Shown here: piece by piece, positions 6,627 through 39,295 of the stretch
Layout: the number at the start of each line of letters is the position of its first letter
Numbering within the stretch: the stretch's first letter is position 1
Assembly: GCA_965367245.1 (NCBI GenBank)
Contig: CBDUIC010000003.1
Coordinates: forward strand, 74,622 to 138,621
Reading direction: 5' to 3'
Origin: an uncultured bacterium
GTDB taxonomy: Bacteria; Myxococcota_A; UBA796; GCA-2862545
DNA: 64,000 nt
The notes under the pieces: model-generated
Databases searched by the model: none
Told to the model about the DNA's origin: nothing
What the model saw: only the letters and a program-made list of their open reading frames with translations
Made by a program: the position numbers and the translations under genes

Positions 6627-6628
6627 GC

Positions 6629-7360
6629 TCAGGCCAGCGCCACCCGCCACACGCCGGCGGGGGAGTGCCCCTCGTCATCCACTGCCAGGGAGTCGTCGGC
6701 CCGGGTGACCAGCAGCCGCGGGCCCGTGCGGCCGGGCTGCAGCATCTCGCCCCCCACCAGCCCCGGACCACCTGCCAGCCGCTGCCCCAGCGCATCGAGC
6801 ACATCGTAGGCGTAGGGCTCCGCCACGGTGCCGTCGACGACGACCTCTCGGTGCCCCAACAGCGGCATACCGCGGGTGCGCCAGTGGCCCTCTGCGCGGA
6901 CCAGCGGGTGCACGAAGGCACGGAACAGGGCCAGGCCTTCGTCATCGTGGAGGTCTTCGGCCAGCGACTGCCACCGCTCGGCACCGTGAGCGAGGCCGCT
7001 CGACACCCACACGGCCTGCGCGCCGGCATCGATGAGCGCATCGCCACAGCGAAGCAGCGCACGGCAGGCCGCAAGCCCGGTCAGGCCCTCGGACGGCTCG
7101 ACCGCCACCACCGACTTGTGGCTGCGCACCCCGTCGATGCGCTCCGGCGTGAGCGACGGGTAGACCGGGTCGTCGTCGGCCTCGAGGCGGGCTGCCATCC
7201 CCTCGTCGGGGGGGCCCATCCGCAGCTGACACACGTCGCCCGAGCCTCGATCGACGAGGCCGCGCTCGGTGAGGTCCCACTCGCTACCGATGGTGTAGAG
7301 GATCCGCACCAACAGACGCGGGCTCGTCCAGTCACCCGGAAGTAGCAGAGAGGGTGTCAA
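6629..7360 (-). CDS. hypothetical protein
   Basis: 243-aa ORF with protein-like composition and no family motif I recognise. It sits tightly between neighbours: its stop is 3 nt from the end of the upstream gene, and its start is 5 nt from the aspS stop. Confidence 0.45.
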   Translation of the reverse strand: MTPSLLLPGDWTSPRLLVRILYTIGSEWDLTERGLVDRGSGDVCQLRMGPPDEGMAARLEADDDPVYPSLTPERIDGVRSHKSVVAVEPSEGLTGLAACRALLRCGDALIDAGAQAVWVSSGLAHGAERWQSLAEDLHDDEGLALFRAFVHPLVRAEGHWRTRGMPLLGHREVVVDGTVAEPYAYDVLDALGQRLAGGPGLVGGEMLQPGRTGPRLLVTRADDSLAVDDEGHSPAGVWRVALA

Positions 7361-7364
7361 CCGA

Positions 7365-9131
7365 TCAGCCCTCGGCCGTGGACTGGATGTGCAGCTCGTC
7401 GAGATCGGCCTCCGGAACCCCCGACGGCGCGCCGCTCATCAGGTCTTGTGCCGAGGTCGTCTTCGGGAACGCGATCACGTCGCGGATCGACGCGGCGCCC
7501 GTCATCAGCATGATCAGCCGATCGAGCCCCATGGCGAACCCGCCGTGGGGCGGCGCTCCGTGGGCGAGGGCCTCGAGGAGGAAGCCGAACTTCTCCTGCT
7601 GCTCCGCCTCGTCGATGCCGAGGGTCTCGAACACCTTCTCCTGCACGTCGGGCTGATGGATACGGATGCTCCCTCCCCCCGCCTCGAGCCCGTTGCACAC
7701 CAGGTCGTAGGCATCGGCGTAGATCGCTCCCATCTCGGCCGTGCCCAGCTTGGGGATGTCTTCGTCGCGGGGCTTGGTGAAGGGGTGGTGCATGGCGTAC
7801 CACCGGTCGGTATCCTCGTCGTACTCGAAGGCAGGGAAGTCGACGACCCAGCAGAAGGCCCAGCCCTCCCCGATGAGGTCGCGCTCCTTGGCGATCTGCA
7901 CCCGCAGCCGGCCCATGCCGGGGTTGACGTGGCTCGGCGAGCCTGCCCCCACCAGCACCAGGTCGCCCACCGCCGCGCCGCTCGACGCCAGGAAGCCATC
8001 GAGGTCGTCGCCGACAGCCTTGCCCAGCGGGCCGCTCATCGACCCCTCAGACACCTTGCCCCACAGCAGCCCACCCATGCGGTAGTTGCGCACGAAGTCG
8101 GTGTAGCGGTCGATCACCTTCCGCGAGGTGTCGCCCGCGCCGCCCTTCACGACCATGCCGCGCAGGATGCCGCCGGCGTCGAGGGCGTTGCGCACCGGGG
8201 GGAACGACGTGGTGGCGAGGGCATCGCCCAGATCGATCAGCTCCATGCCGAAGCGCAGATCCGGCGCGTCGACACCGAAGCGGGCGATGGCCTCGTCGTA
8301 GCGCATCACCGGGAAGGTGGGCAGCTCGACATCGAGCACCTGCTTCCAGATGCCTCGGATCAGCGACTCCCCCACTTCGGTGACCATCGCCTGGGTGCAG
8401 AAGCTCATCTCGACATCGATCTGCGAGAACTCCGGCTGCCGGTCGACGCGGAGGTCTTCGTCGCGGAAGCAACGACAGATCTGGAAGTAGCGGTCGAAGC
8501 CACCGACCATCAGGATCTGCTTGAAGATCTGTGGACTCTGCGGAAGCGCGTAGAACTGGCCGGGGTGCACGCGGCTGGGCACGAGGTAGTCGCGCGCCCC
8601 CTCGGGCGTGGCCCGGGTGAGGATCGGCGTCTCCACCTCGAGAAAGCCCAGCTCGTCGAGGACCTTGCGTGCGGCCAGCATCGCGCGATGGCGCACGACG
8701 AGGTTGTGCTGCAGCGTCGGACGCCGCAGATCGAGGTAGCGATACTGCAGCCGCACCTCTTCGCCGGCCTCTGCCTTGTCGCTGATGGCGAAGGGCAGCG
8801 GCTTCGTGGTGGACAGGATCTCCAGGCTGTCGGGGAGCACCTCGATAGCCCCCGTCGCCTGGTCGGCCTTCCGCGCGCTCTCCGCGCGCAGCGCCACACG
8901 ACCCGTCACCTGCACCACGTACTCGAGGCGCACGTTCTTGGCCTCGGCGCGCACGTCGTCGCTGCAGCGATCGTCGGCCGTGACCTGGACCACGCCGTGT
9001 CGATCACGCAGCACGAGGAAGGTGACGCCCCCTCGGTCGCGGACGGCGTCGGCCCATCCCTGAATCACGACGGTGGCGCCCTCGTCGGCTTCGCGGAGCG
9101 ATCCACAGGTGTGGGAGCGGCGGGTCAGCAT
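7365..9131 (-). CDS. aspS: aspartate--tRNA ligase
   Basis: 588 aa. Class II aaRS motifs and AspRS-specific stretches are present: QSPQIFKQILMVGGFDRYFQICRCFRDEDLRVDRQPEFSQIDVEMSF, FAMGLDRLIMLMTGAASIRDVIAFPKT, and an N-terminal OB-fold anticodon-binding domain. Confidence 0.95.
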   Translation of the reverse strand: MLTRRSHTCGSLREADEGATVVIQGWADAVRDRGGVTFLVLRDRHGVVQVTADDRCSDDVRAEAKNVRLEYVVQVTGRVALRAESARKADQATGAIEVLPDSLEILSTTKPLPFAISDKAEAGEEVRLQYRYLDLRRPTLQHNLVVRHRAMLAARKVLDELGFLEVETPILTRATPEGARDYLVPSRVHPGQFYALPQSPQIFKQILMVGGFDRYFQICRCFRDEDLRVDRQPEFSQIDVEMSFCTQAMVTEVGESLIRGIWKQVLDVELPTFPVMRYDEAIARFGVDAPDLRFGMELIDLGDALATTSFPPVRNALDAGGILRGMVVKGGAGDTSRKVIDRYTDFVRNYRMGGLLWGKVSEGSMSGPLGKAVGDDLDGFLASSGAAVGDLVLVGAGSPSHVNPGMGRLRVQIAKERDLIGEGWAFCWVVDFPAFEYDEDTDRWYAMHHPFTKPRDEDIPKLGTAEMGAIYADAYDLVCNGLEAGGGSIRIHQPDVQEKVFETLGIDEAEQQEKFGFLLEALAHGAPPHGGFAMGLDRLIMLMTGAASIRDVIAFPKTTSAQDLMSGAPSGVPEADLDELHIQSTAEG

Positions 9132-22575: not shown

Positions 22576-24105
22576 TCAGTAGGCGCAGTAGGTAACGCCC
22601 GACTCCTCGCGCTTCTCGGCGCGGAGGTCTTGCGGAGCCCACTTGTCGGACTTGATCTCGGGGATCGTGAACTGACCCTTCAGGTAGACGCGGGTGGTGG
22701 AGTCTTCCCCATCGAGGACGAGGGTGAACGCGCCCTCGGCACTGCCGCCGATACGGAGATCGGAGTTCTCGGAGAACACGACGTAGCTGTAGTTCAGCTC
22801 GCCCCAGCCGTCGTAGCCCGACTCGGTGCCGTCGAGGGCACGCCACTCGTTCATGTGGGTGATGGGCCGGTAGGCGAAGACATCATCGTCTTCGTCAGCA
22901 CGGGCACTGCCCTCGAACTCGATGCGAGCCTGGTCGGCCACACGAGCAATCCGCTCCTCCAGAACGGCCAGGCAATCCGAGTCTTCGTTCAGGTCGCCCG
23001 CATCTTGCTCACACCACCACAGGTAGTCGGCCGTGAAGGCATCACCGAGGCCACCCGCGAGGTCGTCTTCCGACAGGCCGAGGCGCTGGAACAGATCGCC
23101 AAGCTCGGGCTCGGCGTAGGTCGGCGGGCGATGCGAGATGCGCTCTTCGCCGAAGAAGCCCTGGGCAGCCCCTGCAGACCACTGCTCGGGCGTGTACCAC
23201 CAGTCGCTGTTCTCTTCGGGGTTGAACTGGTAGCCGTTGGCGTTGAGGAAGAACAGACGGCCGCCGTCGAGGTAGGGCTCGAGGTGCGCGTAGGGCGCAA
23301 AGGCCTCGTCGTCGCCCTCCAGCGCGGCGATGCGGTCGAGCTCGGTGGACCACTCGTCGATCCAGTCGCCATCGAGGGCCGAGGCCACCACGTCGCCGTT
23401 GTCTTGCACCACGCACTCGGTGGGCTGGAAGAAGCGGTCGACCGCGAACTGGAACCGGATGTCGGCGCCACCTGGCATCGAGTGGTGGAAGCCCACCAGC
23501 AGGTCGCCTTCGTGGGTGACGATGCCCTCGCCCCGCCAGGGGTCGAGCTCGCCGGAGACCACGTGGAAGCCGTCGCGGGACAGCCACGGCTCCTGAATGG
23601 GAGGCCAGAAGCCGTCGCCGTTGTCGTCGCAGTTGGAGGGAGGCAGGTAGAACTCTGCGACCTCGCCGCTCGGCAGCGTGACGACCTCGGTGCCTGCAGC
23701 GCCCACGTTGGGGTCGCTGTCGTCACAGTCGTAGTAGTCGGTGATGCCGTCGTCGTCGTCGTCGAGGTCGGCGATGTCGAGGACAGGGTCGCCGTCGTAC
23801 TCTTCGCGGTTGCCGTCGGTGTCGCGGAAGAAGTGCGCCTCGTCGTCGCCCTCGTCGCCCCAGCCGCAGACGGCCTCCCGATCCTCCAGACGCTGCACCT
23901 CACCGGCCTGCTCATCGACGAAGAATCGGCAGTCGATCTGGTGATAGGTCGCGAAGTTGTCGAGCTTGAGCTGCTCTTTGCGGAGCGTGACCGAGTTGGA
24001 GTCGGCCACGAAGGCAATGAACTCGCCGCTGATCAGCTCGGCGCTCTGCGGGGCGCAGGCGCCAGCGAGCAATGCGGTGACGACGAGAATCTGGGAGGTG
24101 CGCAT
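22576..24105 (-). CDS. hypothetical acidic lipoprotein
   Basis: MRTSQILVVTALLAGACAPQ (lipobox LAGAC). 509 aa, strongly acidic with Asp-rich stretches (DLDDDDDGITDYYDCDDSD). No family recognised. Confidence 0.6.
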   Translation of the reverse strand: MRTSQILVVTALLAGACAPQSAELISGEFIAFVADSNSVTLRKEQLKLDNFATYHQIDCRFFVDEQAGEVQRLEDREAVCGWGDEGDDEAHFFRDTDGNREEYDGDPVLDIADLDDDDDGITDYYDCDDSDPNVGAAGTEVVTLPSGEVAEFYLPPSNCDDNGDGFWPPIQEPWLSRDGFHVVSGELDPWRGEGIVTHEGDLLVGFHHSMPGGADIRFQFAVDRFFQPTECVVQDNGDVVASALDGDWIDEWSTELDRIAALEGDDEAFAPYAHLEPYLDGGRLFFLNANGYQFNPEENSDWWYTPEQWSAGAAQGFFGEERISHRPPTYAEPELGDLFQRLGLSEDDLAGGLGDAFTADYLWWCEQDAGDLNEDSDCLAVLEERIARVADQARIEFEGSARADEDDDVFAYRPITHMNEWRALDGTESGYDGWGELNYSYVVFSENSDLRIGGSAEGAFTLVLDGEDSTTRVYLKGQFTIPEIKSDKWAPQDLRAEKREESGVTYCAY

Positions 24106-24270: not shown

Positions 24271-26646
24271 TCATCGGGCTCCGGTGTCAGCGGTGCTCCC
24301 GGTGCCGGCGGCCGTTCCTACGCCTGTATCCGCGGTCGGCCCGGTCGCCGTGGTGGGGGTGGAGGTGGACCCCTCGGGAGGGTCGGGCACGAGGAAGCGC
24401 AGCGACCCAGAGTCGGTGTCGATGCCGGCGAAGTCGGGCACACCGTCGCGATCGCCGTCGAAGACCAGCACCCCACCCTCCCAGGCGATGGGGTTGTGCC
24501 ACAGCTGCGGAGGCGACACCGCCACCCCGAGGTCACGGTACAGACCGATCACACCCGAAGCGGCGTCGTGGGTCACGAGCTCGGTGACGCCGTCGAGGTC
24601 GATGTCGGCGAAGGTGAGGGTGTCGGCACGACCACCGATCACCGCGAAGGTTCCGTCGGGCGCCACCGAGCGCACGCCGCTGTCTTCCGCCACGATGTAC
24701 CGCGTCACGCCGTCGCCCAGGCGCCACGGAGCGATGGCGCAGCCGGGCGAGCCACACACCTTCACCTCGGGGCCAGCACCGACATCACCGAAGGTGAGCC
24801 CGTAGGCGCCCGCTGCAGTGGTCCGCGACAGCTCACCGAGGGTCGGCCCCAGGAGCAAGACGGTCTCCCCGTCGAGCACGCCCACCGCGGCGCCGGCAGG
24901 ACCCACACCGCAGGTCACCCCACGAGGCTGTGCGATGGGCAGCGTGGCCGACACGATCGGGAAGGTGCGGTCGGACAGGTCGATCGACACCAACGCACTG
25001 TCGAGGAGTGCATAGGCTCGACGGTCGCAGACCACCAGGTCGCGGGGGCTCCCACCGTCGTCGAGGAACGCGTAGCCCACCCGTTCGGAGCGGTCTCCGC
25101 CGACGTCTTCGAGGACCAGGAACTGCAGGCGCCCCGCGTCTTCGTGGAAGGCCAGGAACTCTTCGGTCGCTGGGTCGCCGTCGAGGGTCACGTGCCGCGC
25201 GGGGGGAACCAGCGCCTCACGAAGGAAGGACTCCGAGGGCTTCCGCGGCTCCCAGAAGCGCGTCTCGTCGCCGCGGAACACCCGACCGCGGGTCCATGAC
25301 CAGACGCCCTCGCTGGCGAGGAAGAAGTCGTTGGCGCCGTCTTCGTCGATGTCGTCCACGGCGATGGGGCCGAGATCTTGAAGGTCGGACAGCAGGTTCA
25401 TCCGCGGATAGGTCGCGGTCGCCCCCCGGCCCTGGTTCGACAGCGCCTGAAGCTGCCCGGTCTCCTGAAGGAGCCAGAGGTCGTCGATGAGGTCGCCATC
25501 GCCATCCCCTGCCGCGACATAGGCGGCCTGCTCGTTGTCGAACGACAGGATCAGGATGCCGTCGTCGATGTCGAACAGGTGCACCTGCCGGAGCTGACCG
25601 GGGGTTCGTGGCCCCACCACATGGATCTCATCGGCGCCATCGCCGTCGAGGTCGATGGCGGGCCCCATGGAAGCGCCCGGGGGAAGCAGCACGTTGAGGG
25701 GCGTGTCGGGACCGATGGGCATGTAGCGGGAGGGCGCCCCCTCGATGAACCGCCGCCACGTGCCGTTCGCGAGCAGCACCGTGCCCTGTTGCCGCCCCTC
25801 TGCCGTGTTGTCGCCCACCGCTACGTCGATGGGGATTCCGCCGAGCAGCCGAGGCTCGGCGGCGATGAACCCGAACAGCCCATCCCCGTTCCACACATCG
25901 AAGACGCCGCCGTCGTCACCGCCTGCCCAGGCGATCGCGACATCGGGGAGGTTGTCGCCCGACAGGTCGCCGATGTCGGCTCCGCCCACCGTGTAGCCGG
26001 GGGCCGTGAAGCCTCCTCCCCACGACATCCCGCCGCCATTGCGGCCCCGTAGCAGGAACACGGTCTTCGAGGTCCACGCGATGGCGTCGTCAAACCCGTC
26101 GACGTCGACCTCTCCGGCGCGCAAGCCCAGCACGGGCTCCGACAAGCTCAGCACCTTGTGGGGGCGCAGGCCCTCGTGGTCGACCCACCACACGTCGTTG
26201 CCGTCGATGGCCAGCGCACCGGTGGTGACCCCCACGACCTCTTCCACACCGGCGAGGGGCGCTGCGGCTGACGGCACCAGGCCCGGTGGCTCGTACCAGC
26301 TGGCCAAGCCGTTCATCTGCACCAGGGAGGACCCCGCGCTCACCTCGGTCACGCCTACGGAGTCGATGGTCACGCCGCCGTAGCCGACGCCATCGAACGA
26401 CACCAGGGACGGCACGTCGCCGACCGAGACCGACTGAGGATTGGACGCGACCGCAGCGCCGTACTGGTTGACGGCTCGCACCCAGCCTACCAGCGGCACC
26501 GGCCCCGTAGAGGGCACCGCCTCTACCTGGACCGCCGCCGCGTCGCTGAGCACCTGCGCCGGCGTCACCGAGGGCACCCGCTCTCGGGCGTCGCAGGCGG
26601 CCGAACCAGCAGCCAGGATCACGCTCAGCACTGCGCTCCGACGCAT
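24271..26646 (-). CDS. FG-GAP/VCBS-repeat beta-propeller lipoprotein
   Basis: N-terminus MRRSAVLSVILAAGSAACD (lipobox). It carries repeated FG-GAP-like motifs (GDLSGDNLPDVAIAW, IDLDGDGADEIHVVG, VDDIDEDGANDFFLAS, ADIDLDGVTELV, FDGDRDGVPDFAGI) and a Thr/Gly-rich C-terminal tail. Confidence 0.7.
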   Translation of the reverse strand: MRRSAVLSVILAAGSAACDARERVPSVTPAQVLSDAAAVQVEAVPSTGPVPLVGWVRAVNQYGAAVASNPQSVSVGDVPSLVSFDGVGYGGVTIDSVGVTEVSAGSSLVQMNGLASWYEPPGLVPSAAAPLAGVEEVVGVTTGALAIDGNDVWWVDHEGLRPHKVLSLSEPVLGLRAGEVDVDGFDDAIAWTSKTVFLLRGRNGGGMSWGGGFTAPGYTVGGADIGDLSGDNLPDVAIAWAGGDDGGVFDVWNGDGLFGFIAAEPRLLGGIPIDVAVGDNTAEGRQQGTVLLANGTWRRFIEGAPSRYMPIGPDTPLNVLLPPGASMGPAIDLDGDGADEIHVVGPRTPGQLRQVHLFDIDDGILILSFDNEQAAYVAAGDGDGDLIDDLWLLQETGQLQALSNQGRGATATYPRMNLLSDLQDLGPIAVDDIDEDGANDFFLASEGVWSWTRGRVFRGDETRFWEPRKPSESFLREALVPPARHVTLDGDPATEEFLAFHEDAGRLQFLVLEDVGGDRSERVGYAFLDDGGSPRDLVVCDRRAYALLDSALVSIDLSDRTFPIVSATLPIAQPRGVTCGVGPAGAAVGVLDGETVLLLGPTLGELSRTTAAGAYGLTFGDVGAGPEVKVCGSPGCAIAPWRLGDGVTRYIVAEDSGVRSVAPDGTFAVIGGRADTLTFADIDLDGVTELVTHDAASGVIGLYRDLGVAVSPPQLWHNPIAWEGGVLVFDGDRDGVPDFAGIDTDSGSLRFLVPDPPEGSTSTPTTATGPTADTGVGTAAGTGSTADTGAR

Positions 26647-26666: not shown

Positions 26667-28205
26667 CTAGCACGGCCCGCCACGCCATCGCGCCCCCTCA
26701 CGTGGGTCGAGCCGACGAAGCGTGCGTCGACGCCACCACAGCCCCGGGAGCAGCACCATCAACAGCGGACCGCGCCCGCAGCCCCCGGGGGCAGGATGAC
26801 GCTGCGGGAGGCGTGCCTTGCCAGCACCCCAGCGCGGGTCGGGTGTCAGTGAGGGCTGATCGGACCTCGCCCAGCCCTGCAGACGCGTCGCGGCCTCCCT
26901 CGGCGACAGCGATGGGTCGTCGCTCATCACCAACGCGATCATGCCCGCCACGGCAGGCGTGGACGCCGAGGTCCCGAAAAAGCCCACCGGACCGTACGTG
27001 TCGGTGCTCAGCCCATCGGGGCCGGCGATGTCGGGCCGCGAGACCCCCGCGTGATTCGGCCCCCATGACGAGAAGCCCTCCACCGTGCCCGTGGCGTAGT
27101 CACTGGCCCGCACCGCCCCCACCGCGAAGGCCCTAGGGTGCGCCGCGGGGTCGTTGACCGAGCTGTTCTTCACCATCGGCGCGATCACGCCATCGCGACT
27201 CAGAACGTCGACCGACACCCCCACGGCCGCCCCCGCGCGTGCCGACACCTCCACTCGGTACCACCCCTCCACCGCGACCGTGGCGCGCAGGCGCTCGTAG
27301 GCCTCGCATCCCTCGTCGTCAGGCAGCTGCTCGTCGTCGGCTCGGTCGAGCACCCATCCACGCTCGTCGATGAGCTCTGCGTCGAGGTCGACCTCCCCGC
27401 ACCGGTCCCACCCGTCCCAGTTCACGTAGAGGGTGGCCGACCCCGGTGTCAGGTAGACCCACAGCCCGTTGTCACCGTCGCCATCCATGCGGCCGTCGTG
27501 GTCGACGTCGAGGTAGCGCCCCGCCCAGTGCTGGTCGGCGTTGTTGCCTGCCGACGTGACCAGAAGCACCCCCGCATCATCGAGGCGCTCCACCAGCTCC
27601 GCCTGCGGCCCCGTGCCGTCGTAGTGGGACTGGTTGTAGTACGACAGCGACATGCTGATCACGTCGATGCCCTCGCGGATGGCCCAGTCCACCGCGTTCT
27701 CGTAGGCCGTGACCGAGTTCACCCGCACCAGGTGCAGCTCTGCATCTGGAGCCACGTCTCGGACCACCTCGGCACAGGCCCACCCGTGGGCGCCCGCCTC
27801 GAAGGTCAGCGCAGGTCGTGACAGATCGAAGGGGACCTCGCACGTCGCCGACGCAAAGCAGTCGTGGGTGACCACCGGAGCCGTCTCCACCGGGTCGGTC
27901 TCGCCGACGAACCAGTTGCTGTCGAAGACCGCGACCTTCACGCCCCGCCCCCGGACGCCGTCGGCATGCCATCCGGCCGCTCCGATCGTGCCGAGGGTCT
28001 CCGTCGCCGCGAAGGGCAGCTCCACACGGTCGGTGGACGGCACCACGATGGGCCGCCAGGGCGTACCGTCTCCGGGGGGGCCCTCGAGGATCGACCCGAA
28101 ACGCGAGGTCGCCACGGCCTCGGGGTGATCGGGCACGTCGACCCGCACCAGGTCATCGAGGCCCCACCCTCCGGCCAGCGCCAGCGTCGCCCACCACCAG
28201 GTCAC
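26667..28205 (-). CDS. S8-family (subtilisin-like) serine peptidase, secreted
   Basis: Catalytic-triad context: KVAVFDS (Asp), HGWACAEV (His), and GTSASTPAVAGMIAL (Ser). 512 aa. Confidence 0.85.
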   Translation of the reverse strand: MTWWWATLALAGGWGLDDLVRVDVPDHPEAVATSRFGSILEGPPGDGTPWRPIVVPSTDRVELPFAATETLGTIGAAGWHADGVRGRGVKVAVFDSNWFVGETDPVETAPVVTHDCFASATCEVPFDLSRPALTFEAGAHGWACAEVVRDVAPDAELHLVRVNSVTAYENAVDWAIREGIDVISMSLSYYNQSHYDGTGPQAELVERLDDAGVLLVTSAGNNADQHWAGRYLDVDHDGRMDGDGDNGLWVYLTPGSATLYVNWDGWDRCGEVDLDAELIDERGWVLDRADDEQLPDDEGCEAYERLRATVAVEGWYRVEVSARAGAAVGVSVDVLSRDGVIAPMVKNSSVNDPAAHPRAFAVGAVRASDYATGTVEGFSSWGPNHAGVSRPDIAGPDGLSTDTYGPVGFFGTSASTPAVAGMIALVMSDDPSLSPREAATRLQGWARSDQPSLTPDPRWGAGKARLPQRHPAPGGCGRGPLLMVLLPGLWWRRRTLRRLDPREGARWRGGPC

Positions 28206-28284
28206 GGCTACCCCCTCGAGGTCTTGACGCCTCCTGCACTCGGCTCGGAGGTCGAGACGCTACAGTAGCGCCACGGGAGGGTCC

Positions 28285-29964
28285 ATGCGATCGATGTGGT
28301 GGCTCATGCTGACGGCACTCGTTGCCTGCAGCGGGGGCGGAACGGAAGGAAGCGGCTCGGCGACGGGCGACGACGACGACGACACCTCGGTCGGCGACGA
28401 CGACGACGACGCCACCATCATCGGCGACGACGACGACGACACCACCATCGGCGACGACGACGACGACACCACCGGGCCCATCGTCGACATCACCAGCCCC
28501 GAGGTCGTCTACGGCCTCCGCAACGTCGACAACGACAACGACTTCCGCGACGCCGACCCCACCGACGACGACCTCGTCGCGTTCGAGATCACCCCGAGCG
28601 AAGTCCCAGCCGACGAGATCCGGCTGACCATCAACGGCACCAGCAATGCTCGGCTGTACTACGACGGCGCCATGCTGCTCGACGACGAGGAAGGCGCCAC
28701 CGCCAACATCCCGTGGAGCGCGACCCCCATCGAGCTGATGGTCGAGTTCGGCGAGTTCAACGTCGATGGAACCCTCCTCGTCGAGGAGCTCCTCGGCGGC
28801 GCAGCGGCCAGCAGCTCCGAGACCCGCCTCCGGTCGGCGCCTCTGATCCTCAACCACCACCTGCAGCCCGCCGAGACGGTGATGTCGGTGGAGGTGTCGG
28901 CCTACGGCTCGAACAACATTGCGTTCATTGATGGCTACACCGCTGCCCTCGGGGCAGCGTTCGAGCCCATCCCCGGCAGCCCCTACTTCATGGACCCATG
29001 GGTCCAAGACGAGATCGAGTTCGCCACGAGCCACACCCCCGATCTGATGGTGATGGACACCGTCATCGACTCCATCCGCGACCGCGGGCTCGACGACTAC
29101 CCCGAAGACCGCTGGCAGGGCGAAGACTTCGGCGTGCTCCGGTTCTCCCCCCTCGCCTATGCCAACAGCCTCGACTCCTTCGGCAACCTCGAGGTCAGCC
29201 CCCCTGTCGACGGCTACCCCTTCGGCCGCATCTACTACGGCGCCACGCCGTTCTACGCCCCCGAAGACGACAAGCTGTTCGACTACCTCGAAGACATGAC
29301 CCTGCAAGACCCGTTCACCGTCGACACCAGCTGGCTGTGCGTGGGCCACGTCGACGAGTTCATGTCGTTCATCCCCGACCCCACCGCTCCCCGCGGCTTC
29401 CGTCTGCTCTACACCGACACGCAGACCGCCTGGGACATCCTCGAGTCGATGGACCCAGCCACCCAGCTGCCCCGCTACGCCGGCGCCGGGAACCACGGCT
29501 ACAGCACGGTGGGCCAGATCCTGGCCGACCAGGGCCTGCGCGACCTCAACGACGACCTGCAGGCCGACTACCTCGACGGCGAGCTCGACAAGATGATCAC
29601 CGAGCTCGGTCTGCTCCCCGAGGAGGTCGTGCTCTTCCCCGGCATCTTCGAGGAGGTGCGCTTCTGCGGCACCTACGTGGCCGCCCTCATCCCCGGCATG
29701 GTCAACCTGGTGGTCACCGACTTCTACGGCGGCACCCAGCTCTTCATGGCCGACCCCTTCCTTCGGGAAGACCTCGACGACCAGAGCAGCGACGCGATGA
29801 TCGACGCCGTCAACGCCCTGCTCCCCCCCTTGGTCACGCCGATCTACCTCGACGACTGGGAGATCTACCACCTGGGCCTGGGTGAGGTGCACTGCGGAAG
29901 CAACGTCGTGCGCACCCCCTCGAACGAAGACTGGTGGACCAACGACATCGGAGGCAACAAGTGA
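28285..29964 (+). CDS. peptidylarginine deiminase (eukaryotic-type PAD) homologue, lipoprotein with an N-terminal poly-Asp repeat region
   Basis: Lipobox MLTALVACSGGG. Repeats GDDDDDTSV/GDDDDDATII/GDDDDDTTI/GDDDDDTT. The C-terminal catalytic-Cys motif GEVHCGSNVVR matches the GEVHCGTNV active site of mammalian PAD4. The region upstream of it shares the PAD catalytic-domain layout (FGNLEVSPP..., SWLCVGHVDEFMSF). 559 aa. Confidence 0.75.
   Translation: MRSMWWLMLTALVACSGGGTEGSGSATGDDDDDTSVGDDDDDATIIGDDDDDTTIGDDDDDTTGPIVDITSPEVVYGLRNVDNDNDFRDADPTDDDLVAFEITPSEVPADEIRLTINGTSNARLYYDGAMLLDDEEGATANIPWSATPIELMVEFGEFNVDGTLLVEELLGGAAASSSETRLRSAPLILNHHLQPAETVMSVEVSAYGSNNIAFIDGYTAALGAAFEPIPGSPYFMDPWVQDEIEFATSHTPDLMVMDTVIDSIRDRGLDDYPEDRWQGEDFGVLRFSPLAYANSLDSFGNLEVSPPVDGYPFGRIYYGATPFYAPEDDKLFDYLEDMTLQDPFTVDTSWLCVGHVDEFMSFIPDPTAPRGFRLLYTDTQTAWDILESMDPATQLPRYAGAGNHGYSTVGQILADQGLRDLNDDLQADYLDGELDKMITELGLLPEEVVLFPGIFEEVRFCGTYVAALIPGMVNLVVTDFYGGTQLFMADPFLREDLDDQSSDAMIDAVNALLPPLVTPIYLDDWEIYHLGLGEVHCGSNVVRTPSNEDWWTNDIGGNK
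28366..28478 (+). repeat. in-frame tandem repeats encoding G-D5-(T/A)-x-x, in about 4 units
   Basis: ggcgacgacgacgacgac repeated with short variable linkers; lies inside the PAD-like CDS. Confidence 0.8.
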
Positions 29965-30632
29965 GCCGCTCCCTGCTGATCCTCGCCGCTCTGCTCCCTG
30001 GCCTCGCCCATGCCGGCTGGCGCGACGATGTCGCCGCCTCCCGCGCGGCGTGCGCCACCGACCCCGCCCCGTGCGAGGTCGCCGACACGCTGCGCATCCG
30101 CGAGTCGCGGGCGGGCCTGTGGTTTGCCCAAGACGACCGCCTCGACCAGACGGTGCTGGGTCCCCTCCTCGACCGCCTGCTCACCGAGCCGGAGCCGCAG
30201 CTGCGCCCGGCCATCGCCCACGGCGTGGTGATGCTCCTCGAGGAGTCCGACGCTCAGTGGCACCCCGCGTGGGCCGAGCTCGCTGCCACCGACCGCGACG
30301 CCGAGGTCCGCTCCGTGCTGCTCAGCGGCCTGCGCCGGGCTCCGTTGACCGCTGCAGGCCCGGGCTTGCGCGGCGCGCTAGCCCACGAGCATGCGCCCAC
30401 GCGCCTGCTGGCTGCCGCCAAGATGGGGGGCCATCCCGAAGCGGCCGCCTTCGTCGACGACCTGCTTCCCGCCCTGTCCGACCCCGACCCCAGCGTTCGC
30501 CAGCGAGTCATCCGTGCGCTGGGCTCCGCCCGCGACGCCCGCGCGCTCCCGGCCCTTCAGGCCCTCGACACCAGCGACGAGGTCATCGCTCGTGAGGTCG
30601 AGCGGGCGGTTCGTCGCATCCAGGAAGGCTGA
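29961..30632 (+). CDS. secreted HEAT/PBS-lyase-like repeat protein
   Basis: The GTG start overlaps the PAD-like stop (GTGA), and a GGAGG sits 6 nt upstream. The signal peptide is VSRSLLILAALLPGLAHA. Repeats of the type DAEVRSVLLSGL, DPSVRQRVIRALGSARDARALPAL are HEAT-like. Confidence 0.6.
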   Translation: MSRSLLILAALLPGLAHAGWRDDVAASRAACATDPAPCEVADTLRIRESRAGLWFAQDDRLDQTVLGPLLDRLLTEPEPQLRPAIAHGVVMLLEESDAQWHPAWAELAATDRDAEVRSVLLSGLRRAPLTAAGPGLRGALAHEHAPTRLLAAAKMGGHPEAAAFVDDLLPALSDPDPSVRQRVIRALGSARDARALPALQALDTSDEVIAREVERAVRRIQEG

Positions 30633-31167
30633 CGCGCTCCCAGTCGCCGTCGAAGCGCACCGAGCGCCCGACGGCGATACCGCCAACGAACTGGCCCTCA
30701 CGCACGTCGTGGGGGCCAATGTGCACTTGGGCCTCCTCCTCGCCCACCGCGACCGTCACCCGGTAGGCCCCTGCCTCCTCGGGCTCCAGCGTGGTGAACA
30801 CGAAGGGCCCACACACCAGGTCGCACGGCAGCTGCACCTCGAGGTCACGGGGGACCCCACCTTCCGGCTCGAACGACACCGACACCCGGGGCCGACAGGC
30901 TCGCCCCAGGCCGAGGCACGCCCGAAACCGCACCACCGACCGCCCATCGACCCGCGAGCGCGCAGCCACCGGCGCTACCCGCAGGGGAAGCTGGTCGAGC
31001 TGCCTCCGCGCCACGGTCGCGGCCGCCATCGTGGTGCCCGCCAGCAGCGCCACGGCCACGAGCAGCCCATCGAGCCACCCGGTCGCGACAAACGTAGCCG
31101 CCAGGGGCACCGCCGTGACCCCTACTCCGACCGCCGCCAACCGCTTCACCGGATGGTGGGCCACCAT
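30583..31167 (-). CDS. possible membrane protein (hypothetical)
   Basis: From the internal Met (MVAHHPVKRLAAVGVGVTAVPLAATFVATGWLDGLLVAVALLAGTTMAA) there are two TM helices followed by a soluble domain. It overlaps the HEAT gene end convergently by 50 nt. Weak call. Confidence 0.35.
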   Translation of the reverse strand: MVAHHPVKRLAAVGVGVTAVPLAATFVATGWLDGLLVAVALLAGTTMAAATVARRQLDQLPLRVAPVAARSRVDGRSVVRFRACLGLGRACRPRVSVSFEPEGGVPRDLEVQLPCDLVCGPFVFTTLEPEEAGAYRVTVAVGEEEAQVHIGPHDVREGQFVGGIAVGRSVRFDGDWERVSLPGCDEPPARPHER

Positions 31168-31327
31168 GTCTTGCAGCGCACCCACGGTGCCCACGCTCCC
31201 ATGCAATGATCCATCCGTGCAGGCCGTACCTCGCACGGACCGCGAGGGCGCTTTGCACCCGCTCGTCAGCGGTGTACCTTCTCCAACCCCACCGGGCCAC
31301 GCCCGGACACTCGCTGGAGGCTCTCGG

Positions 31328-32674
31328 ATGTCGCTCTGGAACATGCTCAAGCAGCACGCTGGTGCCCAGTTCATGGAGGTCATCGACTGGACCGATGACA
31401 CCAACGACACCATCGTCTTCCGCTACCCGACCTTCAACCAGGCCATCACCGACAACTCCAAGCTGGTGGTGCGCGAGTCGCAGGCCGGGGTGTTCGTCGC
31501 CGAGGGCAAGCTGTCGGAGGTGTTCGGCCCGGGCAGCTACGCACTCGACACGCGCAACGCGCCGATCATGCGGTTCCTGCAGTCGATCGCCTACAAGTTC
31601 GAGGAGCCGTACAAGGGCGACATCTACTTTGTGAACACCAAGCAGTTCACCGACAACAACTGGGGCACCCCGCGCCCCATCACGGTGCGCGACGCCGAGT
31701 TCGGCATGGTGCGGCTGCGCGCCTTCGGCATCTACAGCTTCCGCATCACCGATCCGGCGACCTTCCTGCGCCAGATCGTCGGCACCGACGGCCTGTTCAC
31801 CACCGACGAGATCTCCGGGCAGCTCAAGAAGAAGCTGGTCTCGTCGGCGTCGGCCACCATCGCCAAGAGCCGGATGTCGATCCTCGACCTCGCCACCGCC
31901 TACATGGAGCTCGGTGATCAGCTGCGCGAGGAGATGAACCCCACGTTCCAGGAGTCGTACGGCATCACCATCACCGACTTCACGATCTCCAACATCAGCC
32001 TGCCCGACGAGGTCGAGCAGGCCCTCGACAACCGCTCCAAGATGGGCATCCTCGGCGACCTCAACGCCTACACCCAGCTCAAGTCCGCTGACGCCATCGA
32101 GAAGGCCGCCAGCAACCAGGGCATGGGCGGCATCGGCGTGGGTATGGGCGTGGGGCTGGGCATGGGCAACCAGGTCGGCAACATGATGGGCCGTGCGGCG
32201 CAGGGCAACGGCACGTTCAACCCCCACACCGGCCTGCAGGCACCCGCCGCCGCTGCGCCGCCTCCCCTGCCCGGGCAAGACACCTGGCACTACAACGGCG
32301 CCGCCGGCCAGGGTCAGTTCACCACCGAGCAGATCGTGGGCCACATCCTCGCCAACCGCGACGCCAGCCATCTGGTGTGGAAGGCAGGCTGGCCCGCGTG
32401 GAAGCCCTACACCGAGGTCACCGAGCTCACGTCGCAGCTGCCGCCTCCCGCCGCAGCGCCCCCGCCACTCCCCGGGGCCGAGAAGCTGCACTACAACGGC
32501 CCCGGCGGTCAGGGTGAGCGCACCATCGCCGAGATCGTTGCCGCCGTGAAGTCCGACCCCGACGCCACCCACCACGTGTGGAAGCAGGGCTGGCCCGGCT
32601 GGAAGCCGGCGGCTGAGGTGGAGGCCATCGCCGCCCAGCTGTCGAGTGGTCCTCCCCCCCTGCCCCCGGCGTAG
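31328..32674 (+). CDS. SPFH/band-7 domain protein with two C-terminal DUF4339 (GYF-like) repeats
   Basis: From the Met at 31328: MSLWNMLKQHAGAQFMEVIDWTDDTNDTIVFRYP, with a typical SPFH N-terminal region. It ends in two tandem 45-aa repeats, WHYNGAAGQGQFTTEQIVGHILANRDASHLVWKAGWPAWKPYTEV and LHYNGPGGQGERTIAEIVAAVKSDPDATHHVWKQGWPGWKPAAEV. The upstream part of the track ORF is non-protein-like. Confidence 0.8.
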   Translation: MSLWNMLKQHAGAQFMEVIDWTDDTNDTIVFRYPTFNQAITDNSKLVVRESQAGVFVAEGKLSEVFGPGSYALDTRNAPIMRFLQSIAYKFEEPYKGDIYFVNTKQFTDNNWGTPRPITVRDAEFGMVRLRAFGIYSFRITDPATFLRQIVGTDGLFTTDEISGQLKKKLVSSASATIAKSRMSILDLATAYMELGDQLREEMNPTFQESYGITITDFTISNISLPDEVEQALDNRSKMGILGDLNAYTQLKSADAIEKAASNQGMGGIGVGMGVGLGMGNQVGNMMGRAAQGNGTFNPHTGLQAPAAAAPPPLPGQDTWHYNGAAGQGQFTTEQIVGHILANRDASHLVWKAGWPAWKPYTEVTELTSQLPPPAAAPPPLPGAEKLHYNGPGGQGERTIAEIVAAVKSDPDATHHVWKQGWPGWKPAAEVEAIAAQLSSGPPPLPPA

Positions 32675-37704: not shown

Positions 37705-38391
37705 TCAGGCGTCGTCGGGCTTCTTCTTCAGCCGGGCCATGACCTCGGCGGCGTAGGCCTCTTGCTTCGACAACACCTTCTCCAGCGCCTGCATGTGCTC
37801 GGCCCGCGTGGCCTGGGCCAGGGGAAGGCAGAGCAGCGACACCTCGGCCATGAGCCCCGGCTCGGTGACGCGAAACACGTCGCGGTGGTCGCGGATGACC
37901 TCGATCCACCGTGCGCGCGGGCGCTCCTTCATCAGCAACAGCCCGACCCGGGGGGCCTTGGGGGCCAGCTCGGCCACCAGATCGTCGATGCGGGGATCCT
38001 CGCCCCCCGCGGTCACCACCATGCCCACCAGGGTGAGCCGACCCGCGGGCAGATAGGCCTCGCGGCTCGCGCCCTCCAGGATCACCGGGTGGGCCGCCGC
38101 TCCGTAGGCGCGGATGGCCGACCCGAGGGCTCGGGTGATGCTCGGGTCGGGGGGGGCCGAGGCGAACGCGTGGATGAGTGGCACCAGCGCCTCGTCGGCC
38201 TGGATTCGCCCCAGCGCCTGCGCGGCATGGCGCTGCTGGTGCATGGGGCGCTCGGGGTCGAGGCGCTCCAGCAGGCCCGGCAGGGCGTCGTCGCCGCACA
38301 TCACCAGACCCGACATCACCGATGACGGGAGCTCACCCTCGCCAGCAGCAGCGTCGAGCTCTTGCAGGAACTGTAGGGCAACCGGATCCAT
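37705..38391 (-). CDS. HEAT/PBS-lyase-like repeat protein (hypothetical)
   Basis: From the Met at 38391: MDPVALQFLQELDAAAG...RHAAQALGRIQADEALVPLIHAF..., a HEAT-like pattern. Confidence 0.5.
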   Translation of the reverse strand: MDPVALQFLQELDAAAGEGELPSSVMSGLVMCGDDALPGLLERLDPERPMHQQRHAAQALGRIQADEALVPLIHAFASAPPDPSITRALGSAIRAYGAAAHPVILEGASREAYLPAGRLTLVGMVVTAGGEDPRIDDLVAELAPKAPRVGLLLMKERPRARWIEVIRDHRDVFRVTEPGLMAEVSLLCLPLAQATRAEHMQALEKVLSKQEAYAAEVMARLKKKPDDA

Positions 38392-38419
38392 GGGACCTCC
38401 GTGGAGGCCGGACGATACC

Positions 38420-39295
38420 TCAGCGCCCGGCGCCGGAGCCCACCGCGACAGCGACCAGCACGTCGGCGCTGCCACCAGCGATCCGCAGCTTGGGCTCGGC
38501 GAACACGAACAGCCGCCGCCCCACTCGCGTCCAGGTCTGCGACCAGCCGACGCGGGCTGCGACGCTGGGACCGACGCCGAAGGCGCGCTCGTTGATCTGC
38601 GTGGAGTTGTCGCTCCAGTACATCAATGCAGGGCCACCCGACACGCCCAGCTGCATGCCGAACGGCGTGACCAGGTCGTAGGCCAAGGCAGGCTCCGTCA
38701 CGAGCAGCGTGTGGATGCCCATGTCACCCTCGGAGGTGAAGCTGAGCTGGCCGCCGATCCGGTGCAGGCCGAAGTTCTTGCCCCAGGCTCCCCGAAGGCC
38801 GAAGCCGACCCAGGGCGGCACGGTGTCGCGGAAGTAGGACACCTGGCCGTAGCTCACCTGCACCGCGAACTCGTAGCTGGTGGAGGGAGGGATCCGGTCG
38901 ATGGTGAGGGTGGGGATGGGCAGCTCGTCTTCCGGCGGCGGCGGCGGCGGCAGCATCATCGGGGCCGACGACAGCTTGCGAGCCTCGGGCGCCTCGGCCG
39001 GCTCCTTGGTCGCCGTAGCTTCCGCCTCGGGCGCCTCCGCAGGCTCCTTGGTCGCCGTGGCCTCCGCCTCGGGCGCCTCCGCAGGCTCCTTGGTCGCCGT
39101 GGCCTCCGCCTCGGGCGCCTCGGCGGGCTTCTTGGTGGCCGTGGGCTCGGCAGGAGCCGCCTTCGTGGCCTCGCCTGCGTCTTCCTCAGCCGCGCCCTTC
39201 GTGGCTTCCTCGGCTTCGGGGGCCGCCGCATCCTGAGCCAGCGCAGGCCCGGACCACCATCCGCCCACAATCAACAAGGCGATCGTTCGAGTCAC
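38420..39295 (-). CDS. secreted repeat protein (Ala/Glu/Pro/Thr-rich 14-aa tandem repeats) with a C-terminal beta-rich domain
   Basis: The GTG start at 39295 is preceded by GGAGG (5-nt spacer). Signal peptide VTRTIALLIVGGWWSGPALA. The unit ATKEPAEAPEAEAT occurs 3.5 times. The C-terminal domain has alternating hydrophobic and aromatic residues. Confidence 0.55.
   Translation of the reverse strand: MTRTIALLIVGGWWSGPALAQDAAAPEAEEATKGAAEEDAGEATKAAPAEPTATKKPAEAPEAEATATKEPAEAPEAEATATKEPAEAPEAEATATKEPAEAPEARKLSSAPMMLPPPPPPEDELPIPTLTIDRIPPSTSYEFAVQVSYGQVSYFRDTVPPWVGFGLRGAWGKNFGLHRIGGQLSFTSEGDMGIHTLLVTEPALAYDLVTPFGMQLGVSGGPALMYWSDNSTQINERAFGVGPSVAARVGWSQTWTRVGRRLFVFAEPKLRIAGGSADVLVAVAVGSGAGR
38970..39145. 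repeat. 42-nt tandem repeat, about 3.5 copies, in-frame within the secreted repeat protein
   Basis: ggctccttggtcgccgtggcctccgcctcgggcgcctccgcag repeated with 1-3 substitutions per copy. Confidence 0.8.

Follow-up and report, generated by a model that had tools for sequence, protein, structure and literature searches.

A PAD (peptidylarginine deiminase) gene and the HEAT-repeat gene directly downstream of it apparently form a translationally coupled operon, which would encode an extracytoplasmic, Ca2+-dependent citrullination module typical of Myxococcota. We give this reading a probability of about 0.7. Its basis is the protein family of the enzyme, its active site and Ca sites, its domain architecture, the export signals and the pairing of the two genes. 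Positions below refer to the window, i.e., the whole 64,000-nucleotide stretch of DNA analysed here.

Identity and active site of the PAD

The PAD gene and the features discussed in this section are as follows.

28274..28280, + strand: Shine-Dalgarno-like GGGAGGG, 4 nt 5' of the PAD start codon, read from the sequence
28285..29964, + strand: PAD gene, 559 aa plus stop; two-domain bacterial PAD, lipoprotein precursor
28840..29961, + strand: catalytic PAD_C (pentein) domain, aa 186-559, from the alignment to PAD4
29008-29010, 29347-29349, 29353-29355 and 29893-29895, + strand: catalytic codons of D242, H355, D357 and C537, respectively

We have compared the PAD ORF with Pfam and the PDB. It matches PF03068 (PAD) with an E-value of 2.3e-64 and 218.2 bits, far above the cut-off of 25, and the match is near full-length: profile positions 6-394 of 395 are aligned on aa 179-551. 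No other Pfam family was found at E<=0.01, and NCBIfam assigns no family to the protein. In the phmmer search, the best PDB matches are PAD1 and PAD4 (E~1e-44, aa 181-552), and the part aligned with them contains the motifs WVQDEIEF, DSIRDRGL, GNLEVSPP, VGHVDEF and GEVHCGSNV. At the C-terminus, ...GLGEVHCGSNVVRTPSNEDWW aligns with ...GEVHCGTNVRRKPFSFKWW of PAD4. The preliminary description of this DNA had recognised the GEVHCG cysteine motif and a PAD-like catalytic layout, and both are borne out by the PF03068 match and the PAD4 alignment. Judged by its sequence, the window PAD is a true relative, in a bacterium, of the human enzymes by which protein arginine is turned into citrulline.

The similarity is not confined to the Cys motif, since all of the catalytic Asp/His/Asp/Cys residues are present. 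D242, H355, D357 and C537 align to D350, H471, D473 and C645 of PAD4, and each of them is kept in 111 of 111 homologues. The equivalent of the peptide-binding R374 of PAD4 is R267, kept in 89 of the 111. Taking Q349, E353, E411 and E351, D369, S370, N373 of PAD4 as reference Ca ligands, we found the Ca1/Ca2 ligands to be 85-100% conserved across the same homologues (Q241 in 110, E243 in 110, E245 in 95, D262 in 111, S263 in 101 and E303 in 108). With the active site and the Ca sites intact, the window PAD is predicted to be catalytically competent. The same evidence keeps it apart from the Porphyromonas PPAD family, as had been proposed earlier: PF04371 (PAD_porph) gives no match in the window PAD, and the four catalytic residues and the Ca1/Ca2 ligands are present.

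Two positions deserve separate mention. The position of PAD4 N373 is taken by Asp266, which is still an oxygen ligand. The calcium-switch position (D388 of PAD4, D389 of PADI2) is D281 in the window PAD, whereas the actinobacterial and fungal enzymes have Gly there. Across the 111 clade homologues this position is Asp in 59, Gly in 25, Glu in 12 and Ser in 6; that is, the clade is intermediate for the Gly feature. Since the N373 position is Asp and the calcium switch is variable, Ca regulation may differ from that of the animal enzymes.

Domain architecture and comparison with known PADs

The catalytic domain is preceded by a second folded domain.

28492..28839, + strand: all-beta domain, probable equivalent of PAD_M, aa ~70-185; starts with the acidic motif N80-x-D82-x-D84-x-D86

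In the AF2 model of the PAD (pLDDT 89.3), DSSP assigns only strands to aa ~70-185. The acidic motif at the start of this domain is well kept among the 111 homologues (N80 in 107, D82 in 111, D84 in 90 and D86 in 105). Foldseek aligns the model with human PAD4 at E=5.6e-38 and TMq 0.76 over 520-547 columns, while PAD_C alone would account for ~380. In addition, the match of the family profile to the PDB reaches PAD4 residue ~207. The assignment as the middle, Ig-like domain PAD_M rests on this predicted fold and profile match because the Pfam PAD_M model gives no match to the window PAD. The cupredoxin-like PAD_N is absent, as the PAD_M-like domain is preceded by the signal peptide and a disordered linker alone; thus the window PAD is not of the three-domain PADI type of animals and late-diverging cyanobacteria.

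A PAD_M-like domain followed by PAD_C without PAD_N is the bacterial two-domain PAD type already described, i.e., the PF03068 PADIs with two domains known from bacteria and fungi (Cummings et al. 2021, PMC8826395; Harris et al. 2020, bioRxiv 10.1101/2020.07.16.207027). The window PAD resembles them in family, in the catalytic Asp/His/Asp/Cys, in the lack of PAD_N and in having PAD_C after what would be a divergent PAD_M, the 'divergent PAD_M' being reported for this type by Cummings et al. (PMC8826395). The likeness extends to the His-rich motif on the interdomain strand, where N190-H191-H192 aligns to residues 299-301 of PAD4 (300-302 of PADI2) and has two of the three His of the published H-H-H. 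On the other hand, a lipoprotein signal and a conserved partner are absent from the published descriptions, in which the gene contexts are called 'highly diverse', while the enzymes of the Myxococcota clade appear to be exported, are predicted to be lipid-anchored via an acidic tether, and have the HEAT gene beside them in 76 of 77 loci.

Human PAD1-4 (PAD4; PDB 1wda, 5n1b) share ~26% identity with the window PAD, together with the PAD_C fold and, by the Foldseek alignment, a probable PAD_M fold, identical catalytic residues, largely identical Ca1/Ca2 ligands and the Arg374 equivalent. The differences are that the human enzymes are cytosolic or nuclear, while the window PAD has no PAD_N, is predicted to be extracytoplasmic and lipid-anchored, carries Asp for N373 and is accompanied by a dedicated partner gene. 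The P. gingivalis PPAD (PF04371) is likewise an exported bacterial guanidino-modifying (pentein) enzyme, and it citrullinates peptidyl arginine outside the cytoplasm. However, it belongs to another family, is Ca-independent, has no HEAT partner, and is exported via the T9SS and not as a lipoprotein.

Export signal and acidic tether

The N-terminal part of the PAD consists of two segments.

28285..28329, + strand: type II (lipoprotein) signal peptide, aa 1-15; lipobox L-V-A-C15
28330..28491, + strand: acidic low-complexity tether, aa 16-69; four G-D5 units

The precursor starts with M-R-S-MWWLMLTALVA-C15, and the lipobox reads MRSMWWLMLTALVA-C15-SGGG. That is, a positive n-region, a hydrophobic h-region and a lipobox of the form [LVI][ASTVI][GAS]C are present and conserved in orthologues. 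The lipobox Cys is invariant in a smaller set (13 of 13), and at least 90% of the 111 homologues have it. A strict heuristic scores a lipobox in 52 of 80 loci and inspection by eye adds ~20 more, the rest ending at contig edges; ~72 of the 73 evaluable loci carry one. The lipobox LTALVACSGGG pointed out in the preliminary description is thus sound, and its Cys is a feature of the whole clade. From these conserved signals we infer the lipidation and the localisation of the enzyme. In the mature protein, Lys is absent at +2 and Ala is absent at +7, which by the +2/+7 rule of M. xanthus, as quoted in PMC5562445, predicts sorting to the outer membrane. The membrane in question is therefore probably the outer membrane. 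Among more distant PADs, we observed signal peptides or fusions to surface/extracellular domains (FG-GAP/TIG, Big/PKD, OmpA, S8).

The four G-D5 units of the tether occupy aa 28-61 (nt 28366-28467), and Tandem Repeats Finder reports a repeat at 28366-28473 with a period of 27 nt, 3.9 copies, 86% matches and a score of 161. The tether is predicted to be disordered, with pLDDT of 40-50 in the AF2 model. Linkers of homologues are acidic throughout, but each lineage has a linker length and a repeat type of its own. Accordingly, the G-D5 repeats are a lineage-specific version of an always-acidic tether that is predicted to be disordered. The repeats had been described earlier as a plausible Ca- or mineral-binding device; they are indeed present from 28366 onward, but a specific binding device does not follow, since the linkers have nothing but their acidity in common.

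The HEAT-repeat partner gene

The second gene of the pair starts within the end of the first.

29950..29954, + strand: GGAGG ribosome-binding site for the partner, within the 3' end of the PAD gene, read from the sequence
29961..30632, + strand: partner gene, 223 aa plus stop; exported HEAT-like alpha-solenoid, signal peptide aa 1-18

The PAD stop codon (TGA, 29962-29964) overlaps the GTG start codon of the partner at 29961, giving GTGA. In a contig of 97% identity, an independent gene call gives the same 223-aa partner and the same 4-nt overlap. The partner adjoins PAD in 76 of 77 loci. Together, the GTGA, the GGAGG and this count uphold the coupling to a secreted HEAT-repeat gene that had been noticed from the window alone. 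Actually, a 4-nt stop/start overlap is found at 36 of 75 PAD/partner junctions, and a gap of 0-10 nt at another 32. Consensus scans for promoters and terminators gave no site anywhere in 28000-31000, and hence none between the two genes; beyond the lack of an intergenic terminator, these scans are uninformative for this organism.

The pairing holds in several further respects. When partner homologues were collected from metagenomes independently of PAD, all five had PAD upstream. One MAG with paralogous PADs has a separate partner beside each, and the partner is also retained beside longer PAD variants. Each of the 75 partners has a signal for export, 24 of them a lipobox and 51 an SPI-like signal. 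Apart from the partner, no family occurs in more than 15 of 79 loci, and no third conserved gene was found across them; an apparent third conserved family proved to be an antisense shadow ORF of the PAD gene. On the other hand, locus L006 has no partner and none is detectable for four more distant PADs, which means that the enzyme can exist without it. No HEAT partner was detectable in the neighbourhoods of the giant and other distant PADs. Overall, PAD and partner are almost always together, and the pairing is widespread in Myxococcota. It is a new point, as we found no description of it in the literature searched.

The partner matches HEAT_2 (PF13646) with E=9.4e-12 and 45.5 bits (cut-off 27.7), and its N-terminal signal is MSRSLLILAALLPGLAHA/G. 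Its AF2 model (pLDDT 93) consists of helices only, and the best fold matches are alphaRep, YibA and CpcE/F. It shares its repeat fold and the 'V-R...A...LG' repeat motif with the PBS-lyase/alphaRep HEAT-like proteins (CpcE/F, NblB, YibA and DOHH). However, those proteins are cytoplasmic. The partner differs from them in its export, in its conserved Cys pair and in occurring nowhere but beside PAD genes; in contrast to DOHH, it also lacks the conserved His-Glu metal motifs. The conserved pair, Cys31/Cys38, suggests a disulfide in the exported protein. We also considered the partner as a substrate of PAD on account of its nearly invariant arginines, and rejected this because these arginines are in the canonical V-R position of HEAT repeats. 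Such a generic fold says nothing about mechanism, and PADLOC yields only weak generic HEAT-ARM matches for the partner.

Proposed function of the module

In the reading that we prefer, the PAD would leave the cytoplasm via Sec, receive its lipid at Cys15 and stay on a membrane by way of the acidic disordered tether of ~50 residues, the G-D5 repeats being this lineage's version of it. The partner would be made in step with the enzyme and exported too. Its HEAT-like solenoid is a protein-binding fold, and it would bind PAD as a dedicated partner. The enzyme would then act on proteins or peptides that are exported, lie on the surface or are foreign, turning their arginine side chains to citrulline with release of ammonia. 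As to the role of the partner, we prefer that of a regulator which would restrain or target PAD, as an inhibitor or an adaptor. The reason is that Ca2+ should not be limiting in the envelope of a marine bacterium, so that it could not act as an off-switch as in the intracellular animal enzymes.

Citrullination has mostly been studied in animals, where it is intracellular, Ca-gated, regulatory and linked to disease. For bacterial PADs of PF03068, the documented functions that we found are the tailoring of a Streptomyces lasso peptide and the in-vitro activity of a cyanobacterial enzyme. In this work, a large, uncharacterised clade of Myxococcota emerges whose PAD would be lipid-anchored and extracytoplasmic and is co-inherited with a dedicated protein that would bind it. 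This raises the questions of which purpose extracellular citrullination serves in bacteria and by what means a PAD is kept in check where Ca2+ does not limit it. Should the partner turn out to inhibit the enzyme or to act as its specificity subunit, it would represent a new mode of PAD regulation and a useful reagent.

Alternative readings of the locus

A different function for the same pair would be that of toxin and immunity protein. PAD would be a weapon, either a predation factor or a SitA-like lipoprotein toxin passed on by outer-membrane exchange, which harms the envelope proteins of other cells by neutralising their arginines, and the HEAT protein would be the cognate inhibitor or immunity protein that shields the producer's own envelope. 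The layout is suggestive of this: a small gene directly downstream, frequent stop/start overlap, strict co-occurrence and a partner for each paralogue. Enzyme and partner would end up in one compartment, and the partner diverges faster than the enzyme (mean identity to the window proteins 32% vs 44%). Myxobacteria do deliver lipoprotein toxins with downstream immunity genes, and in SitA/SitI (Vassallo et al. 2017, PMC5562445) the toxin is, like PAD, a lipobox lipoprotein without Lys at +2 whose small cognate gene lies directly downstream. However, SitA toxins carry nuclease domains and work inside the cytoplasm, where their immunity proteins also reside, unlike the PAD with its exported partner. 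No delivery or escort domain is found on PAD, where Pfam finds the PAD family alone; PAD has no PADLOC match, and PADLOC links the pair to no known defence system. Nor is the enzyme hypervariable: it is well conserved and mostly present in a single copy. Citrullination is not known to be toxic to bacterial envelopes. Taken together, we regard the toxin reading as not very likely.

We also checked giant proteins ending in PAD as possible polymorphic toxins, which would have spoken for an immunity function of the partner. They do not belong to Rhs, CDI or any other kind of polymorphic toxin but are surface proteins of adhesin or hydrolase type, and their domains are FG-GAP/TIG, Big/PKD, OmpA with metalloprotease, S8 with amine oxidase, or lipase-like. 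A more specific proposal is that the partner is a dedicated inhibitor and that Myxococcota use an outer-membrane or extracellular PAD offensively, in predation or lipoprotein exchange, to neutralise arginines in the envelope proteins of other cells. We hold this to be unlikely; if true, PAD-family enzymes would gain their first natural protein inhibitor, and citrullination would for the first time be seen to serve as a bacterial weapon.

The second alternative enlarges the locus by three neighbouring genes.

26667..28205, - strand: Peptidase_S8 (Pfam)
24271..26646, - strand: FG-GAP lipoprotein, ...AAGSAAC/D
22576..24105, - strand: acidic lipoprotein, pI 4.05, 22% D+E

In the preliminary description these genes were joined with the pair into one extracellular locus, where, for example, citrullination might ready proteins for proteolysis within a common modification and degradation system. 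The genes are there, on the opposite strand to PAD, and all five proteins have export signals, but the joint functional locus is not sustained: the S8, FG-GAP and acidic lipoprotein genes are found beside PAD in 0 of 79 distant loci, compared with the 76 of 77 for the HEAT partner. In loci L082-L085, S8, and FG-GAP where the sequence reaches, are syntenic with PAD down to 56% identity. This synteny is limited to relatives with at least 56% PAD identity, and the unrelated Band_7 gene downstream is equally syntenic there, as shared ancestry alone predicts; the pattern thus fits ordinary lineage synteny. Among distant PADs, P0252 has a Peptidase_S8 domain and P0264 has FG-GAP repeats in the same polypeptide, but since both domains are very common in exported proteins, such fusions may reflect shared location alone. 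A five-gene system is accordingly quite improbable. A MYXO-CTERM sorting tag had been suspected at the end of the S8 protease, and NCBIfam detected none.

Finally, PAD might deiminate a specific ribosomal peptide encoded elsewhere, like the Streptomyces PF03068 enzyme that makes the citrulline of citrulassin lasso peptides. For no other bacterial two-domain PAD has a product been demonstrated, and the gene of this one is also unlinked to the substrate cluster; moreover, myxobacteria are rich in natural products. However, this reading is very hard to credit, as the clade enzymes appear exported and lipid-anchored and would meet such a peptide only after its export, no recurrent RiPP-like genes lie near PAD in 79 loci, and the citrulassin case has no counterpart of the dedicated HEAT partner.

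Distribution and origin

Two statements made earlier about this enzyme have to be given up. Bacterial homologues were said to be rare, whereas we found more than 1,300 in a metagenomic protein collection and members in 282 GTDB species genomes, almost all of them Myxococcota. The enzyme was also called 'eukaryotic-type', yet the bacterial two-domain type is already published and, in the published view, PADs were transferred from bacteria to animals and not the reverse (PMC8826395). The enzymes of this clade are native bacterial enzymes, and we have corrected the label. There is no evidence for recent horizontal transfer, with a GC content of 0.67 in the region and 0.67-0.75 in the rest of the window. 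According to Harris et al. (bioRxiv 10.1101/2020.07.16.207027), most proteobacterial members of the two-domain type come from uncultured aquatic and sediment bacteria. We found no characterised member of the present clade in the literature; its cultured members include Enhygromyxa salina and Paraliomyxa miuraensis.

A bona fide PAD of the two-domain type

The protein-arginine deiminase (PAD) and the exported HEAT-repeat protein adjoining it (hereafter the partner) are encoded as follows.

28285-29964, plus strand: PAD gene, ORF of 559 aa
29961-30632, plus strand: partner gene, 223 aa

Pfam PAD (PF03068) matches aa 179-551 of the PAD with E=2.3e-64 and a score of 218 bits (cut-off 25), covering nearly the full model (positions 6-394 out of 395). 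The Pfam search gave no family besides PF03068; the Porphyromonas PPAD family was not matched, in agreement with the preliminary description, which had set the protein apart from it. Of the solved structures, those closest in sequence belong to human PAD1 (E=3e-44) and PAD4 (E=4e-43), with alignments that span aa 181-552.

The catalytic His and Asp residues, on which the preliminary description had made the assignment depend, are found in the PAD4 alignment and are invariant in the homologues, so that the match goes beyond the short Cys motif. In this alignment, WVQDEIEF corresponds to PAD4 W347, Q349, D350, E351 and E353, DSIRDRGL to D369, S370, R372, N373 (Asp in the window) and R374, GNLEVSPP to E411, VGHVDEF to H471 and D473, and GEVHCGSNV to H644 and C645. 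Eight residues do not vary among 111 aligned homologues (D242, H355, D357, C537, H536, D262, R265 and W239), and conservation at the Ca1/Ca2 ligand positions is 85-100%.

We have also modelled the protein with AlphaFold2 (pLDDT 89.3), and the model has three parts.

aa 1 to ~65: disordered N-terminus (signal peptide and acidic linker)
aa ~70-185: all-beta domain
C-terminal to the beta domain: alpha/beta catalytic domain

Foldseek aligns the model to human PAD4 over 520-547 columns (E=5.6e-38, TMq 0.76). Since this far exceeds the ~380 residues of the catalytic domain PAD_C, the all-beta domain of the model is the predicted counterpart of the middle domain, PAD_M. A family profile also extends back to PAD4 residue ~207, and the beta domain starts with a conserved motif, N80-x-D82-x-D84-x-D86, which we take to resemble the Ca site N153-x-D155-x-D157 of PAD4. 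The N-terminal domain PAD_N is absent from the window PAD. Overall, the product is a genuine PAD, of the two-domain type already known from bacteria.

For a GC-rich genome the PAD is arginine-poor, with 19 R in 559 aa (3.4%), while the partner has 10.8% and the neighbouring S8 protease and FG-GAP lipoprotein have 7.6% and 5.3%, respectively. Speculatively, this could limit self-citrullination. Opposite the PAD gene lies an antisense ORF of 579 aa (28153-29892, minus strand). GC content is uniformly high in the window (0.67-0.75), and this ORF is a high-GC artefact able to mislead ORF-based scans: equivalent shadow ORFs form a 'family' in 75 of the 79 loci clustered all against all, solely because the PAD gene is conserved.

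Relation to known PADs

Cummings et al. (2021, PMC8826395) have divided the PADIs into a three-domain type, in animals and late-diverging cyanobacteria, and a two-domain type (divergent PAD_M and PAD_C) in fungi, actinobacteria and proteobacteria, and argue that the animal PADI gene came from cyanobacteria. The window PAD has N190-H191-H192 at PADI2 positions 300-302, which are a His triplet in the two-domain PADIs. Its 'calcium switch' residue is Asp, as opposed to Gly in the actinobacterial and fungal PADIs. Harris et al. (2020, bioRxiv 10.1101/2020.07.16.207027) gathered 837 bacterial PF03068 PADs, showed that the citrulline of citrulassin is made by a Streptomyces PAD, found the proteobacterial PADs mostly in uncultured aquatic and sediment bacteria, and termed the bacterial PAD gene contexts 'highly diverse'.

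Bacterial homologues had been described as rare, and this view has to be abandoned. In the protein collection, at least 1,322 sequences are homologous at E<1e-5. The best of them is 96% identical, and several from Myxococcales, Nannocystales and Paraliomyxa already bear the name 'protein-arginine deiminase family protein'. Homologues occur in 282 GTDB species genomes, and among 1.84 billion representatives there are 1,732 clusters (50% identity) with E<=1e-3, of which 242 reach E<=1e-30. As its relatives number in the hundreds and have names in the databases already, the PAD by itself is not novel. Our literature search found no paper on myxobacterial PADs.

Predicted lipid anchor and acidic tether

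The lipobox and the four G-D5 units of the PAD are present as first described, and Tandem Repeats Finder reports a period of 27 nt with 3.9 copies at 28366-28473. In the best 79 genome loci, essentially every PAD that is not cut off at its N-terminus by a contig end has a lipobox Cys (52 according to a strict rule and ~20 by eye), and the remaining PADs are truncated. The first 50 residues after this Cys are always acidic, with 6-21 D/E and 0-6 K/R. The G-D5 form of the linker occurs in the window and its 76%-identical relative, while other lineages have (GD)n, (GGD)n or D-T-D-x repeats, and some have nearly no linker. As the linker form varies by lineage while the acidity stays, the conserved feature is an acidic, disordered tether, and G-D5 is a local repeat expansion of it.

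Ca binding by the G-D5 tether, which the preliminary description had considered plausible, is possible. In two homologues (P0027 and P0032, loci L088 and L089), an Ig-like module and TSP3_bac Ca-binding repeats replace the plain acidic linker between the lipobox and the PAD_M-like domain, and this mildly favours a Ca-related role of the tether region. According to the M. xanthus sorting rule as quoted in PMC5562445, lipoproteins with no Lys at +2 and no Ala at +7 go to the outer membrane. By this rule, which comes from a different myxobacterium, the PAD would be sorted there.

Pairing with the HEAT-repeat partner

The PAD gene is coupled to the partner gene as originally noted, with a GTGA stop/start overlap and GGAGG upstream. 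We surveyed this pairing in the best 79 genome loci (of 282 GTDB genomes), which are almost all from Myxococcota MAGs and include Enhygromyxa salina DSM 15201 (L026) and Paraliomyxa miuraensis SMH-27-4 (L019). BLAST of the window neighbours detected the HEAT protein in 29 loci and no other neighbour anywhere, and an iterated HMM detected it in 70 of the 77 loci with sufficient downstream sequence. Inspection of the seven apparent exceptions revealed four downstream partners, two upstream partners (L003 and L008) and one true absence (L006), bringing the total to 76/77. All-against-all ORF clustering yields just two conserved families, the PAD in 79 loci and the partner in 77; the next real family is found in 15 loci.

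For the 75 downstream partners, the start overlaps the PAD stop by 4 nt in 36 cases and lies 0-10 nt after it in 32; six begin farther off and one overlaps by more. All 75 have a hydrophobic N-terminal signal (24 lipoboxes, 51 SPI-like). On a JGI contig of 167 kb, which comes from a relative with ~97% identity, independent gene calls give a PAD of 557 aa and a HEAT protein of 223 aa, again with a 4-nt overlap. A search that started from the partner recovered five homologues on metagenome contigs, and all five have a PAD directly upstream. The partner is also kept by PAD variants with additional N-terminal domains, and in two MAGs with two PAD loci each, every locus has a separate partner. Between these paralogous loci the partners are 35-38% identical and the enzymes 45-58%, that is, the partners diverge faster; likewise, in a set of 59 loci the partners average 32% and the PADs 44% identity to their counterparts in the window.

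In L006, the lipobox of the PAD (6198-8063) is followed by an additional Cys-rich module (CDPDDCGGKGSTGSCWCDDLCVQYGDCCSDKAAVC), and the next gene is a convergent one for a lipoprotein. Four cases were examined among the more remote PADs (31-35% identical) and the giant PAD fusions, and the partner was seen in none of them, so the pairing appears to be specific to this clade.

As for its role, we favour a regulatory binding partner, which might be an inhibitor or an adaptor. Coupled translation and export should bring PAD and partner to one compartment in linked amounts, and outside the cytoplasm there should be no shortage of Ca2+, with which PADs are usually switched. The papers searched contain no description of the clade-wide combination of predicted lipid anchor, acidic tether and obligatory, co-exported HEAT-repeat partner. 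What the partner does and which substrates are used could be addressed by experiments in cultured species.

Neighbouring genes and giant PAD fusions

The preliminary description had further suggested that the PAD and its opposite-strand neighbours could form one extracellular locus. The identities of these neighbours hold (S8 protease, FG-GAP lipoprotein, and acidic lipoprotein of pI 4.05). A shared functional locus is not supported, as all three genes are absent from the 79 distant loci by both BLAST and ORF clustering. In relatives whose PADs are 56-97% identical (L082-L085), the three genes are syntenic. Since the unrelated downstream Band_7 gene is likewise syntenic there, this is what shared ancestry predicts. 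A functional link may still exist, since distant PADs are fused to such domains. In sum, the original observation is confirmed and its interpretation partly supported.

These fusions are giant extracellular proteins with C-terminal PAD_M and PAD_C (loci L090 and L091).

P0252: PAD fused to S8 subtilase and flavin amine oxidase
P0264: PAD fused to FG-GAP and TIG
P0215: PAD fused to OmpA and reprolysin-like metalloprotease
P0271: PAD fused to Big/PKD
P0256: PAD fused to lipase-like domain

There is no HEAT partner near them, and the fusions form a separate group of surface PAD architectures that is apparently undescribed. At the least, they show that bacterial PADs have repeatedly been deployed as surface or extracellular enzymes, in agreement with the lipoprotein reading of the window PAD.

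In the C-terminus of the S8 protease (26667-26850, minus strand: ...PGGCGRGPLLMVLLPGLWWRRRTLRR...), a Gly/Cys motif precedes a hydrophobic helix with an Arg cluster. This arrangement presumably resembles a MYXO-CTERM-type sorting tag, and the NCBIfam search gave no match for it.

A minus-strand ORF of ~203 aa (30583-31194) lies in the ~690-nt gap (30633-31324) that separates the HEAT gene, whose 3' end it overlaps by 50 nt, from the Band_7/SPFH gene. Gene calls on the near-identical contigs L085-L087 include this ORF, which looks like a lineage-specific insertion, since L083 and L084 have just 110-160 nt at its position. It seems to have two hydrophobic helices and has no match in Pfam or NCBIfam. 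The Band_7/SPFH protein itself (31325-32674, plus strand) carries a ~45-aa repeat, WHYNG...GQ..T..EI......D....HVWK.GWP.WKP, in two C-terminal copies with proline-rich linkers on either side, and its L085 equivalent is annotated as Band_7_1 with a faint GYF_2 match. Visual inspection suggests HEAT-like repeats (…AAQALGRIQADEALVPLI…) in another ORF, at 37705-38475 (minus strand), which is unlinked to the PAD.
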